From assembly GCA_034520945.1 (NCBI GenBank), contig JAXHNB010000006.1:384001-448000 (forward strand): a DNA stretch of 64,000 nucleotides. The letters run 5' to 3'. Below are positions 32,658-40,697 of the stretch, piece after piece. Below the pieces are notes generated by a model. It was not told the DNA's origin. It saw only the letters and a program-made list of their open reading frames with translations, and did not search any database. A program made the translations under genes and the position numbers. The stretch's first letter is position 1, and each line of letters starts with the position of its first letter. The stretch comes from Trueperaceae bacterium (lineage in GTDB: Bacteria > Deinococcota > Deinococci > Deinococcales > Trueperaceae).

Positions 32658-34118
32658 CAATGCCGTTCACTTAGTCTTGACGGGGTGGGTTTGGGCTGGT
32701 AGCTTGCGGTGTGGCGAAGCCCGGTCGTGCGAAGAAGGTGGAGCGCGAGTTCGGGGTTGCGGATTTGGTGGGGTTCGGGTTTCTGGCGGCGTTCTTTCCG
32801 CCGGTGCTGGTGGATCGGGTGTTGCGGGAGTGTGGGCGTCTGGAGCAGCGTTCGCGGCTTTTGCCCTCGCGGGTGGTGGTGTATTACGTGCTGGCGATGG
32901 GGTTGTTCGCGTCGGCGGGGTACCGGGAGTTGTTCCGGTTGTTGGTGGAGGGGTTGCGGTCGTTCGATCCGTCGGTGCCGGTGGTGATTCCGCAGAAGTC
33001 GGCGTTTTCGAAGGCGCGGGCGCGGGTGGGGTCGGAACCGCTGCAGCGCTTGTTCGAGGAGACGGTGGCGCCGATGGCGCAGCCGGAATCGCAGGGCGCG
33101 TGGTATCGCTCGTGGCGGTTGATGAGCGTGGATGGCAGCACGCTGGAGGTGCCGGACACGCCGGAGAACGCCGAGGAGTTCGGTCGTCCGGGCGTGTCGC
33201 GGGGTGAGCGGAGCGCGTACCCGCGGGTGCGGTGGGTGGCGCTCGGCGAGGTGGGCACGCGCGCCATCGTGGGCCTGTCCGCGGGGGCGTACGGGGTTTC
33301 TGAGTTGACGCTTGCGAAGCCGTTGCTGGCGCACTTGCAGCCGGGGATGTTGTGCCTGTGCGACCGGGCGTACTTCGGGTTTCACGCCTGGCAGGAGGCC
33401 CACGCGAGTGGTGCTGAACTGTTGTGGCGCCTCAAAGGCAACGCAGTGTTCCCCGTCGATAAGCGCCTGCCGGACGGGTCGTTCTTGAGTCAGGTGTTCG
33501 AAAGCCCGAACGATCGCCGCAAGGGCCTACCGGGCGTACCGGTCCGGATCCTCGAGTACGCGCTCGACGATCCCGGCAGGCCGCAGGCGGCGCAGCGGTA
33601 CCGCTTGGCGACCACGATCCTGGACCCCAAGGAGGCGCCGGCGCACGAGTTGGCTTCGCTGTACGCGAAGCGTTGGGACATCGAGATCAGCATCAAGGAG
33701 GTCAAGGCCAGCCAGGGCGGCACCCACCTGGTGCTGCGCAGCCGCAAGCCCGACGGTGTGATCCAGGAACTCTACGGCTTCGCCTGCGTCCATTACGCCA
33801 TCCGCTGGCTCCTCCACCAGGCCGCGCTCGGCAGCAACGTCGACCCCGACAGGCTCTCCTTCACGGGCGGCCTGCGCGCCATGCGACGCAAACTCTCCAG
33901 ACCCGAGAGCTTTTCCCCCCACGACCCGAACCACGCTGATTCATGAAGCGATCCACGAAATCCTTTCCGAACCGAATCCCGCACGACTCCGCTCCTGCCC
34001 CCGCGTCGTCAAGCGCGCCGTCACGTACTACCCACCCAAACGCACCAAGCACGCCAACTGGCCGCAACCCACCAAGACGCCCGACCAAGCCATCACCATC
34101 CTTAAGTGAACGGCATTG
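32658..34118 (+). mobile_element. IS4-family element
   Basis: 16-bp IR CAATGCCGTTCACTTA; 10-bp TSD GGTCTAGGCT at 32648-32657 and 34119-34128. Confidence 0.95.
32711..33946 (+). CDS. IS4-family DDE transposase
   Basis: SVDGS, CDRAY and Y..RWDIE...K motifs. Confidence 0.92.
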   Translation: MAKPGRAKKVEREFGVADLVGFGFLAAFFPPVLVDRVLRECGRLEQRSRLLPSRVVVYYVLAMGLFASAGYRELFRLLVEGLRSFDPSVPVVIPQKSAFSKARARVGSEPLQRLFEETVAPMAQPESQGAWYRSWRLMSVDGSTLEVPDTPENAEEFGRPGVSRGERSAYPRVRWVALGEVGTRAIVGLSAGAYGVSELTLAKPLLAHLQPGMLCLCDRAYFGFHAWQEAHASGAELLWRLKGNAVFPVDKRLPDGSFLSQVFESPNDRRKGLPGVPVRILEYALDDPGRPQAAQRYRLATTILDPKEAPAHELASLYAKRWDIEISIKEVKASQGGTHLVLRSRKPDGVIQELYGFACVHYAIRWLLHQAALGSNVDPDRLSFTGGLRAMRRKLSRPESFSPHDPNHADS

Positions 34119-35202: not shown

Positions 35203-35250
35203 AGTGGCGTCCCGCAGGTTCTGTAACTTCCCCCACCTGGGGGAAGTTAC
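35203..35250. repeat. Left part of a 68-bp perfect palindrome (REP-like); the rest is at 36783-36802
   Basis: Removing the IS110 gives a 32-bp stem with an ACCT loop. Confidence 0.9.
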
Positions 35251-35352
35251 AGATGGGATGTAGAGGCCGCCCTCCGCCTGACGCAGTCACCCGTCGCGGG
35301 GCTGCTCTACCCTGTGGTGACGGGCTGGGTTGGCCCGGAAGGGAGGACGGCC

Positions 35353-36429
35353 ATGATCCAGGATACGTCTTCGGTTTCGCCTTGCATCGCAGGGGTCGAC
35401 ATTGGGGACGACACCTCCAGCGTGTGCATCTTGGATGCGGCATCGGGAGACGTGCTGGAGGAAACCCGCGTTCGGACGCGCGTGGCGGACGTGGAGCGGT
35501 ACTTCGCGCGGTTGGACCCATTGCGTGTCGCCATTGAGACCGGGACGCACTCGTCGTGGATCGCGCGCGCCATCAGCGACGCGGGGCAAGACGTCACGAT
35601 CGCCAACGCCGCGCACGTCCGGTTGATTCACGGCAGCAAACGCAAGAACGACCGGCTGGACGCCGAGAAACTCGGGCGCCTCCTCCGGTACGACCGGGCG
35701 TTGCTCGCGCCCATCACGCACCGGGGTCGCGCCGCGCAACTGGACCTTTCCGTTCTCCGTGCACGGGACGCGCTGGTCAGGGCGCGCACGCTCCTGATCA
35801 ACCACGTGCGCGGGGTGGTGAAGTCCTACGGGCAGCGCATCCCCAAGTGCGAGACGAGCGCGTTCTCCAAGCACGCCGCCTCGCACGTTCCCCCGGACCT
35901 GCTGCCCGCCCTGCAACCGCAGATCGAGGCGATCGCGCACCTCACAGAGCAGATCCGCAGCGCCGATCGGCGCGTAGCGGAGCTGTGCCGCACGACCCAC
36001 CCCGAGACGGCCGTCCTGACGCAAGTACACGGCGTGGCCGAAACCACCGCCTTGACGTACGTCCTCACTCTCGAAGACCCCAACAGGTTCCACCGCAGTC
36101 GCGACGTCGGCGCGTACCTCGGTCTCACACCCGGCCAACGACAATCCGGCGGCAGGGATCCCGATAGGCACATCACCAAGGCCGGCGATCGTGCGCTACG
36201 CAGGCTGCTGATTCAGTGCGCCCAACGCATCCTCGGCAAGCGCGGCATCGACAGTGACCTCAAGCGGCACGGGCAACGCATCATGCAACCCGGCACCAAG
36301 GAGGCGAAACGACGTGCCGTGGTCGCCGTCGCCCGCAAGCTCGCCATCCTCCTGCATCGACTCTGGATCACCGGCGAGGTGTACGAACCGCTCCACAACA
36401 ACCAACCGAAACCGACCCCCTTGACGTGA
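35353..36429 (+). CDS. IS110 DEDD recombinase/transposase
   Basis: GVDIG, AIETG, KNDRLDA, YLGLTP..QSGG and VAVARKL motifs. Confidence 0.95.
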   Translation: MIQDTSSVSPCIAGVDIGDDTSSVCILDAASGDVLEETRVRTRVADVERYFARLDPLRVAIETGTHSSWIARAISDAGQDVTIANAAHVRLIHGSKRKNDRLDAEKLGRLLRYDRALLAPITHRGRAAQLDLSVLRARDALVRARTLLINHVRGVVKSYGQRIPKCETSAFSKHAASHVPPDLLPALQPQIEAIAHLTEQIRSADRRVAELCRTTHPETAVLTQVHGVAETTALTYVLTLEDPNRFHRSRDVGAYLGLTPGQRQSGGRDPDRHITKAGDRALRRLLIQCAQRILGKRGIDSDLKRHGQRIMQPGTKEAKRRAVVAVARKLAILLHRLWITGEVYEPLHNNQPKPTPLT

Positions 36430-36493
36430 GTTGAGTTCGCGCTCGGCGCGCGGCACGGACGAGGATCGCACCTGGGGCGTGCCCACCTTCCGG

Positions 36494-36630
36494 GACGGGT
36501 GACTGCGACGGCTGGCTCTGGCTCTACGAAGCCGCTTTACAGAGTGCAGCACCCAACTTGGATGTACCCCACCCTGCACCGAGCCGACCTACCGGCTCAC
36601 CACGAGTGCGCATGGAAGAACAAGGCAAGG
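36494..36630 (+). ncRNA. Candidate bridge RNA/seekRNA of the IS1111-type element (boundaries approximate)
   Basis: The 3' NCR contains TTACAGA (target left flank plus core) and CATGGAAGA (donor junction). Confidence 0.6.
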
Positions 36631-37078
36631 GCACCCCCGCATCAAGGCGCGCACCCCGCCCGCCACCGCCAGGCGCGACCGGCCCGTCAAGAACTACAAA
36701 CCGCACCCAAGCAAACGCGGCGAAAACCACACCCCCCGCGTCGGCGCCAACCTACGTTGACACGAAGCGGCCTCAACATGGAAGAACCTGCGGGACGCCA
36801 CTGCATAATCGCTTCGTCAATCAGGGCTCGAGCTTCAGCCTCATCTTCAGCTACGAACTCGAAGCACATGGGGTCCCGGATATCGCCACGGCACTCGTCA
36901 AGCACGACCCCACTCGTATGGCTCGCAGCAGAATAGACGAGGTCCCGCGGCGACCACGCAACGAGGAAGAAGCAACTTAAAGCCACAAGTACGACGCGCA
37001 CGGCTTCTACGTTAGCCGGGGCATGTAGCCTTGGGCGCCATAGCTGCCGGCACATTAAGATTAGTTGTCATTTGGACC

Positions 37079-38209
37079 CTAGTGGAGAGCCGTGCGCGGC
37101 TGCTCGCCCGGAGCCGTCTCCGCCTCGGCTACCGCCCTAACTACATTGGCGACATGAGTGGCCACTTCGTCCAGTGGGGCGTTACGCTCGAACCGGGCGG
37201 TCACAGGACGACTGCCATTCAAGGCCGTCGTGCCGGCCTCTACCAAGAACGGCGCGTCGCGCTCCGCCAACCACTCAGCCAGTTCATTCGCAGCCAATTT
37301 CTCGCCGATTGCGCGTCGCTGGAAGACCGTCACCTCCCAACCGTACGTGCCGATCCAAGCGTCGATCGCCACCACCGCTCCCGACTGAAAGTCGATGTCG
37401 TATACCGAGGAGCCTTCCAACTCGCCGGGCACGCGCCAGTACCGCGTTTGCAGTTTGTTACTCACCTCCGCGGTCACCAGTTCCTCGACGTGCGCCCGGA
37501 GTTCATTCCCCTTCAAGCGATTCTCGCTCGCAAAGGAGTCCGCAGCGCGGAGTAAGGCCAAGACGTCATCCTCACGCTTCTTCAGGAGTTCGAGCACGGC
37601 TGGATTCATCCGGATTCCCTTTCGTAGATTCTCCATGGTCTTCAAGAAGTCGAGTGTGAACGTCACGTACTGCGCAGGCACGTCGGCCGCGTGCAAACCA
37701 AGATCCCGTCGTACGCGACCCATCAGCTGCGCGTAGGTGACCACCACAACCCCCGCTGGCACCTGCTTCTGGGGCTCGTGCAAGCACAACAGGATCAATG
37801 CCACCTGGCGCCCCTTAGCCTTACGCTCCAAGTGACCTAGGTACTCGTCCATCGGGTTGTAGACCGGCGCAAAGACCTTGTTCTCCACACCAATCAGGTG
37901 AGCATCCGCGTCGATCACCAGGTCGATCCGGTAGCCGCTGGACGTCCCCACCTCACGCTCCACCCCCAAGACCGAGACCCCCTCGAAACCCAACGGTTCC
38001 GTCAACGCCTCGAGGAACAAGCCCTCCAGGCCATGCCCCTCCGCCGGGTCCAGGAAGTACCGCAAGAGGTTGCTTGCGACGTTCTCGTAGCTCGGGTAGC
38101 CCGCCGCTTCGAGAAGCGTTGAGGGTGTGGCGCTCGCACCACGGATCCGCCCAAACTCCTCCAAGAGCGACTCAAATCGAGTAACGTCGTCCACCTCGGT
38201 AGTTTTCAT
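37079..38209 (-). CDS. PD-(D/E)XK nuclease-family protein (PDDEXK_4-like)
   Basis: ENVASNLLRYFLDP..GHGL, RIDLVI and GVENKV motifs; GGAGG RBS. Confidence 0.85.
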   Translation of the reverse strand: MKTTEVDDVTRFESLLEEFGRIRGASATPSTLLEAAGYPSYENVASNLLRYFLDPAEGHGLEGLFLEALTEPLGFEGVSVLGVEREVGTSSGYRIDLVIDADAHLIGVENKVFAPVYNPMDEYLGHLERKAKGRQVALILLCLHEPQKQVPAGVVVVTYAQLMGRVRRDLGLHAADVPAQYVTFTLDFLKTMENLRKGIRMNPAVLELLKKREDDVLALLRAADSFASENRLKGNELRAHVEELVTAEVSNKLQTRYWRVPGELEGSSVYDIDFQSGAVVAIDAWIGTYGWEVTVFQRRAIGEKLAANELAEWLAERDAPFLVEAGTTALNGSRPVTARFERNAPLDEVATHVANVVRAVAEAETAPGEQPRTALH

Positions 38210-39483: not shown

Positions 39484-40494
39484 TTACAGTTGTTCGAGCC
39501 AGGTGAGGAGGTCGGGAGTCTGCTTCCATGAAGCGGTGCTGTACTCGGGGGTCTTGCCGTTTGGTGCGCAGGTTTCGATGGCTTTGCGTTTGGTGTTGAG
39601 ATCTATTTCTGCGTAGATGTTGGTTGTGCGGAGGTCCACGTGTCCGAGCCAAGCGCGGATGACGTTGATGTCGACGCCTGAATTGAGGAGATGCACGGCG
39701 CTGGTATGACGGATTGTGTGCGGTGAGATGCGTTTCCTGGCCAGTGTCGGGAGTTGCTGTGCTGCTTTGGTGGCATGCTTCTTCAGGATGTGGTCGACGC
39801 CGAAGCGGGTAATGGCCTGCTTGCGGTCGTTCAGGAATACGCGCGCGTCGCTTTGGGCGGGGATGCGGTTATCGTTGAGCAGGGTGTTCAGTGTGTCGGC
39901 AGTGGTTTGCCAGAGCGGGCAAATGCGTTCTTTGCTGCGTTTACCGTAGAGAAGTACCTGCCGGGGTCGCGTGAGCTGCAGGTCGCGAGCGCGTACGGTG
40001 GTCAGCTCCTGCACGCGGGCACCGGTATTGTAGAGGAAGAGAAGCATAGCGTGATCGCGACGTCCTGAAGGTGTGTTGCGGTCGGGTGTGGCGAGAATGG
40101 CCTGCATCTCGTTTAGTTCGAGGTAGTCGATGGTTTGAACGGGTGCTCGTTTTCGCGGCAGGGTGCAGATTCGTCGGCATTGCTCGGCGAGGGTTGGCTC
40201 TTCGGCGGCGGCGTAGTGGAAGAAGCTGCGCAGCGCGGCGAGACGGTTGTTCCTGGTGATGATCTGGTTACCGCGATCGCGTTCGAGGTGGTCGAGGAAG
40301 CCTGCGATCATGTTCACATCGAGATCGTTGAAGGTGAGCTTGACGACGGGCCGGTTCGTTCGTTGGGAGGCGTAGCGCAGCAGCAGTTTGATTGCGTCAC
40401 GGTAGCTGTGGAGGGTCTGGGCACTGAAGCCGCGGCGTGGCAGGACGAGAGTGAAGTAGCTCTGGATCAGTTCTGTCAGTCCCCTCGTCTTCAT
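39484..40494 (-). CDS. Tyrosine recombinase (RitC-like)
   Basis: YNTGARVQE, SPHTIRH and WLGH...TT..Y motifs; TRNNRLAALRSFF. Confidence 0.9.
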   Translation of the reverse strand: MKTRGLTELIQSYFTLVLPRRGFSAQTLHSYRDAIKLLLRYASQRTNRPVVKLTFNDLDVNMIAGFLDHLERDRGNQIITRNNRLAALRSFFHYAAAEEPTLAEQCRRICTLPRKRAPVQTIDYLELNEMQAILATPDRNTPSGRRDHAMLLFLYNTGARVQELTTVRARDLQLTRPRQVLLYGKRSKERICPLWQTTADTLNTLLNDNRIPAQSDARVFLNDRKQAITRFGVDHILKKHATKAAQQLPTLARKRISPHTIRHTSAVHLLNSGVDINVIRAWLGHVDLRTTNIYAEIDLNTKRKAIETCAPNGKTPEYSTASWKQTPDLLTWLEQL

Positions 40495-40697
40495 GGCGCA
40501 CATCGGGAAGGCGGAGCGCAATTGTCCTCGAAGCGGCGACCGGCCTGAACCAGCGTGTCGCTGGTGATCGTGGCGTAGTACTGGGTGGTGGTGATGTCCT
40601 TATGCCCCATGTAGGTAGCCAGTAGGGGCAGGAGGTTCTGAACATCGCGGCCTTGTTCGTACCATCGGGCGATCCTGTGCGCGGCAAACGTGTGACG
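40491..40697 (-). pseudogene. RitB-like recombinase C-terminal fragment
   Basis: RHTFAAHRIARWY..G......LP.LATYMGH.....TQYY; ATGA overlap with the ritC-like gene. Confidence 0.8.

Follow-up and report, generated by a model that had tools for sequence, protein, structure and literature searches.

An IS1111-family insertion sequence, probably aimed by an RNA from its own 3' non-coding region, within an IS256-type terminal repeat hairpin of a Trueperaceae genome

How does an insertion sequence come to sit at one precise position of a hairpin of which its host genome holds a single full copy? The question arises in a stretch of 64,000 nucleotides from a Trueperaceae bacterium (assembly GCA_034520945.1, contig JAXHNB010000006.1, positions 384,001 to 448,000 of the forward strand), which we call the window and to which all coordinates below refer unless a contig or locus is named. 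At 35251-36782 of the window lies a complete insertion sequence of the IS1111 family, whose recombinase is very probably aimed by an RNA encoded in the 3' non-coding region of the element itself. The preliminary description of this DNA had proposed a complete RNA-guided recombinase with a readable target, a proposal now supported by conserved RNA stems and by the covariation of guide segments in about 100 relatives; the natural target would be the inner part of a terminal inverted repeat of the IS256 family. The parts of the element and of the hairpin that it splits are listed here, as read from the letters unless another basis is given.

35203 to 35250, no strand: left part of the palindrome, comprising the left arm (35203-35234), the loop ACCT (35235-35238) and the first 12 nt of the right arm (35239-35250)
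35251 to 36782, plus strand: insertion sequence of the IS1111 family, 1532 bp, bounded by the IS1111 convention in which one AGA is counted inside the element
35251 to 35257, plus strand: left terminal extension of 7 bp, AGATGGG, in which AG is the core and ATGGG is predicted to be read by donor guide Td
35258 to 35270, plus strand: left subterminal inverted repeat, ATGTAGAGGCCGC, 12/13 complementary to 36767-36779
35353 to 36429, plus strand: transposase gene, 358 aa from ATG (PF01548 and PF02371)
36430 to 36782, plus strand: 3' non-coding region of 353 bp, predicted to encode the guide RNA
36767 to 36782, plus strand: right subterminal inverted repeat (36767-36779) and right extension of 3 bp, GGA (36780-36782)
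36783 to 36802, no strand: remainder of the palindrome, the last 20 nt of its right arm, with core AG at 36783-36784 and then the right flank AACCTGC

The anatomy of the element can be read directly. The subterminal repeats, described earlier as lying 7 and 3 bp inside the ends, are found at 35258-35270 and 36767-36779, and the AGA assigned to both junctions stands at 35251-35253 and 36783-36785; of the two non-coding regions, the one behind the transposase gene is the longer, with 353 bp against 102 bp at the 5' end. The transposase matches PF01548 (E 5.2e-17) and PF02371 (E 5.1e-19), comprising a DEDD/RuvC-like domain and a C-terminal domain, and in the latter it carries a GL-P----SG motif of which G257, L258, P260, S265 and G266 are invariant among 35 homologues. 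We have followed the definition of IS1111 elements given by Siddiquee et al. (2024, PMC11187229), namely subterminal repeats measuring about 11-13 bp, a left extension of 7 (or 6) bp with a right one of 3 bp, a long 3' non-coding region and the above motif. Because these are the defining features of the family, the element is placed in IS1111 by anatomy and motif, while the NCBIfam model NF033542 ('IS110 family RNA-guided transposase'), to which the protein scores 212.5 bits with a cut-off of 140, gives the IS110-family level only. The protein family is very large: among 8000 scored candidates 7050 have E <=1e-40, and the closest non-identical transposases are 70-75% identical. Membership of the IS110 group proper (IS621-like) was considered and rejected, for that group has its guide RNA on the 5' side and subterminal repeats that are absent or of 2-3 bp, whereas here the 102-bp 5' end contains no guide matches and the repeats span 13 bp.

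Four segments of the 3' non-coding region correspond to the sequences that such a recombinase would have to recognise, two on the side of the target and two on the side of the donor.

36511 to 36519, plus strand: target guide T, GCTGGCTCT, complement of the top strand of core and right flank, perfect to AGAGCCAGC at the site on contig C5
36537 to 36544, plus strand: target guide B, TTACAGA(G), identical to the top-strand left flank and core, so that it can pair with the bottom strand (sequence and covariation)
about 36564 to 36574, plus strand: donor guide Td, GTACCCCACCC, whose CCCA (36568-36571) would pair with the left-end TGGG (family covariation)
36611 to 36619, plus strand: donor guide Bd, CATGGAAGA, identical to right end plus core (family covariation)

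The segment TTACAGA at 36537-36543, previously equated with left flank plus core, is present as described; the weak match noted near 36510 also exists, at 36511-36519, and its weakness is confined to the window, for it has two mismatches to the window flank (7/9 positions agree) and none to the right flank of a second copy on contig C5. TTACAGA occurs 16 times in the 3.47-Mb genome, counting both strands, and by our reading of the sites seven of these occurrences belong to the system of this element.

The relatives give these matches their weight. We compared 166 loci, 6 from whole-genome searches, 80 from genomes and 80 from metagenomes, the metagenome relatives having been found with an alignment query while a single-protein query gave none. 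The target guides were evaluated in the 101 relatives whose two junctions each show AG and whose flanks extend for 10 nt or more: the element's own flanks contain an exact match of at least 7 nt to B in 70 cases, to T in 59 and to both in 42, against means of 11.0, 11.5 and 2.5 (maxima 18, 22 and 7) when the flanks were dealt to other elements in 200 shuffles, although it counts against this comparison that targets are common to many relatives, so that the elements lack independence and the numbers from the shuffles are inflated and form no clean null. The covariation of the TTACAGA segment with insertion sites, suggested as a check in the preliminary description, is present in this set. Moreover, among the 56 relatives in which both matches reach at least 6 nt, 54 have T on the 5' side of B at a distance of 22-67 nt, and this is the order reported for IS1111 seekRNAs (PMC11187229).

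The donor guides behave likewise. The segment CATGGAAGA at 36611-36619, which had been equated with the right end plus core of the predicted circle junction, is indeed there, and across the family 95 of the 97 elements compared have a Bd that agrees with their right end, ATGGAAG accompanying the right end ATGGA (80 elements) and ATAGAAG accompanying ATAGA (15), leaving two exceptions. For Td, CCCA goes with the left end ATGGG in 56/64 elements and CTCA with ATGAG in 16/18; five ATGGG elements keep CTCA, with which a G-U pair is still possible. The imperfect match that had been placed around 36565 is found as ACCCCACCC at 36566-36574. According to Durrant et al. (2024, PMC11208160), IS1111 bridge RNAs sit in the right end of their elements, and the bases that bind the donor are placed in a multiloop; the layout of the donor guides in the window matches that statement. 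In about 100 relatives, then, the guide segments vary in step with the flanks and ends of the element that carries them.

Would such segments be exposed in a transcript? The stems that surround them are the following.

36497 to 36506, plus strand: 5' strand of stem P1, GGGTG, a bulged A and CTGC, which closes the target-binding loop (9 pairs)
36520 to 36533, plus strand: hairpin P2, distal in the target-binding loop, formed by GGCT, the loop CTACGA and AGCC (minimum-free-energy fold)
36546 to 36554, plus strand: 3' strand of stem P1, GCAGCACCC, pairing with 36497-36506
36575 to 36610, plus strand: stem P4 (TGCAC 36575-36579 with GTGCG 36606-36610) enclosing hairpin P5 (GAGCCG 36581-36586 with CGGCTC 36593-36598), supported by covariation

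Alignments, first of six non-coding regions and then of 66 of the 87 distinct segments of the relatives, present a conserved scaffold with variable inserts, on which 21 base pairs in these four stems (P1, P2, P4 and P5) were placed by hand. Over the 66 sequences, standard pairs occupy 95.1% of the cells against 87.3% in shuffles, and compensatory changes on both sides appear in 125 cells against 31.8, a number reached by 0/500 shuffles; this control is open to the objection that it leaves the relatedness among the sequences in, which the second control, in which partner columns were slid by 1-3 positions and pairing fell to 25-47%, removes. P1 is paired in 98.7% of cells, two of its pairs having both-side changes in 34 and 26 of the 66 sequences; P4 is paired in 98.5%, all five pairs of P5 show both-side changes, and in P2 the two base pairs for which a family-wide alignment is possible have 90.2% of their cells paired. 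RNAalifold alone recovered just the two most conserved stems, and the minimum-free-energy fold of 36487-36643 (-54.3 kcal/mol) contains P1, P2, P4 and P5 together with an outer stem joining 36489-36494 to 36557-36562. P1 and P2 bound an internal loop with T on its 5' side and B on its 3' side, and P4 and P5 separate Td from Bd. The guide segments, for which a location inside stems had been considered damaging, thus fall between conserved, covarying stems in the 66 relatives.

These observations suggest the following mechanism. The RNA would have two loops, a target loop closed by P1 and capped by P2 and a donor loop around P4 and P5. T would pair with the top strand of core and right flank and B with the bottom strand of left flank and core, so that together they would specify TTAC-AG-AGCCAGC; Td would read the left end, and Bd the right end plus core, of the circularised element, and recombination would occur at a shared core AG, as the family indicates. 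That the RNA is made and bound by the recombinase, and that the element passes through a circle, we infer from this arrangement.

Several further points, beside the relatedness that inflates the two shuffle comparisons, weigh against RNA guidance. No RNA sequencing run is listed with the sequence. The predicted unpaired probability of the guides is modest, 0.50-0.59 against an average of 0.40, and T and B can pair with each other across the core. The window's own site is mismatched to T at two positions, while Td is weak in the window element, with four contiguous pairs or, alternatively, 6/9 positions with three A-C mismatches. Searched against Rfam, the region matched no family at gathering score, and the four matches returned, with E >=3.8, are those of chance.

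If the RNA aims the element, where else in the genome has it gone? The second copy occupies 587677-589207 of contig C5 (1531 bp against 1532, listed at 100% identity), with a left flank that ends AGTTACAGA and a right flank that starts AGAGCCAGC once an older fragment behind the copy is removed. At this site the match to B spans 8 nt and that to T 10 nt, covering 13 contiguous bp. Hence the two copies would represent different grades of fit, the window copy lying in a site with two mismatches to T and its sister on C5 in a perfectly matching one. On its minus strand, the left arm of the window palindrome carries the target once more (TCTGTAA, 35220-35226), and there it is unoccupied. The genome retains no intact version of the 13-bp ideal site at 0 or 1 mismatch; two mismatches are found at 18 sites, among them this unoccupied left arm, and three at 406.

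A few minor observations belong to these sites. On its 5' side, at a distance of 0-5 nt, TTAC is preceded by a short GC-rich stem-loop at the window site (35230-35243), at the guide-B site inside the element (36520-36533) and perhaps at the C5 site (locus L002 ~1470-1495); a stem-loop in the target has been reported as a second layer of specificity for ISPpu10 (2026 preprint). To the left of the C5 copy, at C5 586177-587596, are a frameshifted IstB-like ATPase of an IS21-type element and a truncated DUF1670 frame. On contig C8, at 147379-147397, a lone 19-mer is identical at 17/19 positions to the IS1111 right end and reads ...CATAGA followed by AG; no transposase homologue was found near it by tblastn at E <=1e-3, and it could be a decayed right end or a product of chance.

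The site on C5 raises a further puzzle: what follows the second copy? Directly behind its right end come 241 bp (C5 589208-589448) with 95% identity to the element's 3' end, and this fragment starts at the AGA of the TTACAGA in the non-coding region, that is, within guide B. A 370-nt contig of depth 13.4 from run X3, a sediment metagenome of a different study, joins position 36536 to position 35247 with 7 letters shared, the order at the junction being non-coding region, TTACAGA and left end. The sequence of this internal guide-B site is TTACAGAG. The two joints fit what would be expected of the right and left junctions produced when one copy recombines at the guide-B DNA of another. Since the guide-B DNA is itself a left half-target, copies would recombine at each other's guide gene, leaving on C5 a full copy followed by a 3' fragment. 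In support of such an event, recombination at half-matches has been demonstrated for IS621, in which the core plus one arm is sufficient (preprint 10.64898/2026.08.31.748434), and tandem non-coding units as well as partial circles with recurrent internal endpoints have been described in IS110 loci (preprint 10.64898/2026.08.14.744561). We therefore propose, tentatively and at somewhat less than even confidence, that the guide-B DNA is a built-in half-target at which copies recombine, and that the element is at the same time a hyperparasite of IS256-family insertion sequences, one IS256 copy seemingly having moved with 18 nt of its left end as a replacement terminus.

An alternative, possible though on balance unlikely, is that host recombination at the 7-8 nt of TTACAGA(G), by slippage, microhomology or homologous exchange between copies, produced both the C5 structure and the X3 junction. 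Every route that can be drawn to the C5 structure takes two steps, and the structure offers no choice between the routes; one of the steps could be homologous recombination between copies that are 95% identical, and the activity of the recombinase is assigned from its sequence. The X3 joint could equally derive from a circle of element nucleotides 1-1292. Two surveys of other loci of the family also count against recombination at guide DNA: a nested junction is absent from all left-end-like sites (0/127), and 3/185 right-end-like sites fit the nested-junction pattern, all three being judged ordinary targets. Against host recombination stands the coincidence that two independent junctions, the right one on C5 and the left one in X3, fall on the same nucleotide of 1532, exactly where the core adjoins the guide-B sequence; moreover, homologous recombination makes poor use of a repeat as short as 7 nt, whereas half-match recombination by IS621 is demonstrated in the preprint cited above. 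In listings of papers we found no report of a bridge RNA element that had inserted into the DNA of its own guide, which is weak evidence that none is in print. If recombinase action at the guide gene is nevertheless the true cause, it would yield tandems of a full copy plus a 3' module together with partial circles, and would provide a concrete cause for the recurrent internal endpoints of IS110 loci. Other joints encountered in metagenomes (35664 to 36316, 35667 to 36313 and 36393 to 36603) were rejected as candidates, having short sides in conserved coding parts shared with other elements.

How long, then, is the core at which these exchanges would take place? The preliminary description had suggested, with due hedging, a core of 3 nt. 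The end repeats of the family are recognisable in 138 of the 162 loci of relatives (the five loci of the window genome being dropped), in which the left extension is most often AGATGGG (67) or AGATGAG (27) and the right extension GGA (104) or AGA (23). The right flank starts with AG in 127/138, and its third base is then G (52 loci), C (35), T (31) or A (9). Because the third base of the flank varies among the relatives, AG is the invariant core; these flanks thus indicate that the core shared by donor and target in the family is AG, not AGA, and a core of 3 nt is unsupported at the family level, with A in third place in only 9/127 AG-starting flanks. The window element could still differ from its relatives in using AGA, which we consider doubtful. 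In favour of this possibility, AGA is common to the donor junction and to all of the element's own sites (the window, contig C5, the remnant on contig C8 and the internal site), and both target guides span the A, B as TTACAGA and T as the complement of AGAGCC. However, the A sits in the conserved left end, whose first letters are AGAT in no fewer than 107/138 relatives, and the targets of relatives have G, C or T in third place in 118/127 AG-starting cases, so that the identity of the third base is not needed in the family. The third A of the window target would be specified by the element's own guides, and the A of the element itself belongs to the conserved left end. The position of the strand crossover inside AGA cannot be placed from sequences. 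Dozens of Acidobacteriota relatives (loci L030-L086) lie in near-identical sites, TTATC-AG-GA(C/G)TTAG, often several per genome.

The hairpin itself remains to be identified. When 35251-36782 is removed, 35203-35250 and 36783-36802 form a hairpin with a perfect 32-bp stem and a 4-nt loop, ACCT; of the flawless palindrome claimed earlier, the stem is confirmed, but the loop is not self-complementary, so that the 68-mer is no strict palindrome. Short-word BLAST of the genome returned a single full copy of the palindrome and, on contig C8, two partial arms; the palindrome was not found in 60 related genomes at up to 3 mismatches. Its flanks are unique in the genome, hence it is not the end of a larger repeated element there. 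One of the partial arms forms an end of an IS256-family element on contig C8, the only member of this family in the genome (PF00872, Mutator-type transposase, E 2.8e-132), which interrupts higA next to higB and is bounded on both sides by the 8-bp repeat GATCTGCG; the arm of the palindrome is identical to that end at 29/32 positions. On the strength of this identity, the hairpin is to all appearances two IS256-family terminal repeats set back to back, like a miniature derivative.

The preliminary description had compared the target with REP-like sequences (repetitive extragenic palindromes), and one could maintain that the palindrome is a host REP-like element or a terminator whose likeness to IS256 is incidental. 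IS110 and IS1111 elements do often target REPs (PMC11208160), and the window palindrome has no 8-bp duplication around it. Nevertheless, this explanation appears quite improbable: the many dispersed copies that characterise REPs are lacking, with a single full copy and two partial arms in this genome and none in the related ones; the palindrome has no T-run after it; and the end that its arm resembles belongs to an IS256-family element bounded by an 8-bp duplication in higA. The comparison with REPs therefore gives way to an IS256-family terminal inverted repeat.

Further evidence for the link with IS256 comes from other copies and other genomes. The opposite end of the IS256-like copy on C8 reads TTTACAGA and continues with 18 nt identical to the left end of the window element, so that it looks as if this copy had moved by using a surrogate end inside an inserted IS1111 element. 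At C8 ~134919-134953 (locus L168:2900-2935; also L168:1495-1545), the outer ~17 nt of the repeat nearest the transposase start are replaced by those 18 nt. An IS256-like element of 74% identity is present twice in genome G020, each time within an 8-bp duplication of its own; these copies display the natural repeats of the group, both of which contain TCTGTAA ~18 nt from the tip. Viewed on its opposite strand, the C5 site agrees with the left repeat of G020 in the outermost 12 nt and in TCTGTAA, and is for this reason considered a remnant IS256-type end, lying within a pile-up of insertion sequences. A 62-nt contig of depth 4.6 from the metagenome of run X1 has a related element in the same repeat. 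Among the metagenome contigs covering the window locus no empty palindrome turned up, although contigs cannot show absence.

The weakest of the alternatives, that the guide-like matches are due to chance and the protein alone chooses the target, is hardly credible, since the single matches are indeed short (7 to 10 nt) but when the mononucleotides of the non-coding region were shuffled 20000 times, 97 shuffles contained TTACAGA, 8 contained GCTGGCTCT and 13 contained CATGGAAGA, which, taken in reverse, makes chance unlikely for the first and excludes it for the latter two, the guides covary with flanks and ends across the family and are flanked by conserved stems, and RNA guidance has been shown experimentally for four IS1111 members (PMC11187229).

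The donor would be formed when the ends of the element are joined, and the right end holds a feature that may drive transcription from such a junction.

36757 to 36762, plus strand: TTGACA, candidate -35 box of a circle-junction promoter (read by eye)

The candidate -10 box, GAAGAT, would span the joined ends 18 nt downstream of TTGACA; it matches at 3/6 positions, which leaves the candidate below the threshold of the promoter scan. TTGAC is kept in 6/6 aligned relatives, and the combination of TTGACA and GAAGAT would fit the circle-junction promoter of the family (PMC11187229). In the integrated copy the promoter scan found 0 sigma-70-like promoters. None of the metagenome contigs covering the element carries a junction of right end to left end, and again contigs cannot show absence.

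In comparison with known systems, the mechanism and architecture are those published in 2024. The element resembles the IS1111 seekRNA elements ISEc11, ISKpn4, ISPst6 and ISPa11 (Siddiquee et al. 2024, PMC11187229) in its DEDD transposase with GL-P----SG, in its 13-bp subterminal repeats, 7- and 3-bp extensions and long 3' non-coding region, in the position of the top-strand complement 5' of the bottom-strand complement with overlap at the crossover, and in its orientation-specific insertion into one sequence. It differs from them in its target, an IS256-family terminal repeat identified here by computational means, and its transposase of 358 aa exceeds the 330-350 aa quoted for the family in the same paper. 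With IS621 and ISCro4 (Durrant et al. 2024, PMC11208160; PDB 8wt6, 9t56) it would share a two-loop RNA whose target guides are distinct from its donor guides, each set reading the two strands around a 2-nt core; the imperfect pairing on the donor side also recalls that reported for the right donor guide of IS621. In contrast with both, the proteins are distant (E 3.3e-07 and 7e-07, for the C-terminal part only), the RNA is encoded at the 3' and not the 5' end with the order of the guides reversed, the core is AG rather than CT, and the subterminal repeats are long.

The arrangement on C5, a full element and then a non-coding 3' unit, is similar to the half-match modules of IS110 elements (10.64898/2026.08.31.748434 and 10.64898/2026.08.14.744561) and to those of ISPpu9 (PMC12288879); shared too is an internal junction at a site matching one guide arm plus the core. 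The half-match preprints classify donor-side half-matches (LD-only and RD-only), whereas here the match would be to the left arm on the target side and in the very DNA that encodes that guide. The main text of Hu et al. contains no term for an LT-only class or for junctions within the DNA encoding the bridge RNA, and the supplements of the two preprints may bear on target-side half-matches.

Specialisation on the end of another mobile element is not without parallel. Partridge and Hall reportedly described, in 2003, IS1111 members (IS4321 and IS5075) that target the terminal repeats of Tn21-family transposons, and these elements are likewise specialised on the terminal inverted repeat of another mobile element. 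The differences are that the host is here an IS256-family (Mutator-type) insertion sequence and not a Tn3-family transposon, and that one IS256 copy appears to keep 18 nt of the invader as its new end. Listings of papers gave no report of IS256 repeats as the target of an IS1111 member, again weak evidence that none is in print.

The known mechanism is left unchanged by this element. Its interest lies in that all four guides can be assigned from the sequence alone, and in that perfect, two-mismatch and half-match sites occur naturally side by side in one genome, a convenient start for work on how far mismatches are tolerated and how half-matches lead to off-targets in IS1111, the branch that has received less study. 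It would also illustrate how one mobile element, by homing on the end repeats of another family, can cripple or remodel its host element.

The neighbourhood of the palindrome is rich in genes of mobile elements, including an IS4-family transposase (32711-33946, plus strand), a PD-(D/E)XK nuclease family protein (37079-38209, minus strand) and a phage-type integrase (39484-40521, minus strand), and the palindrome may lie in a genomic island.

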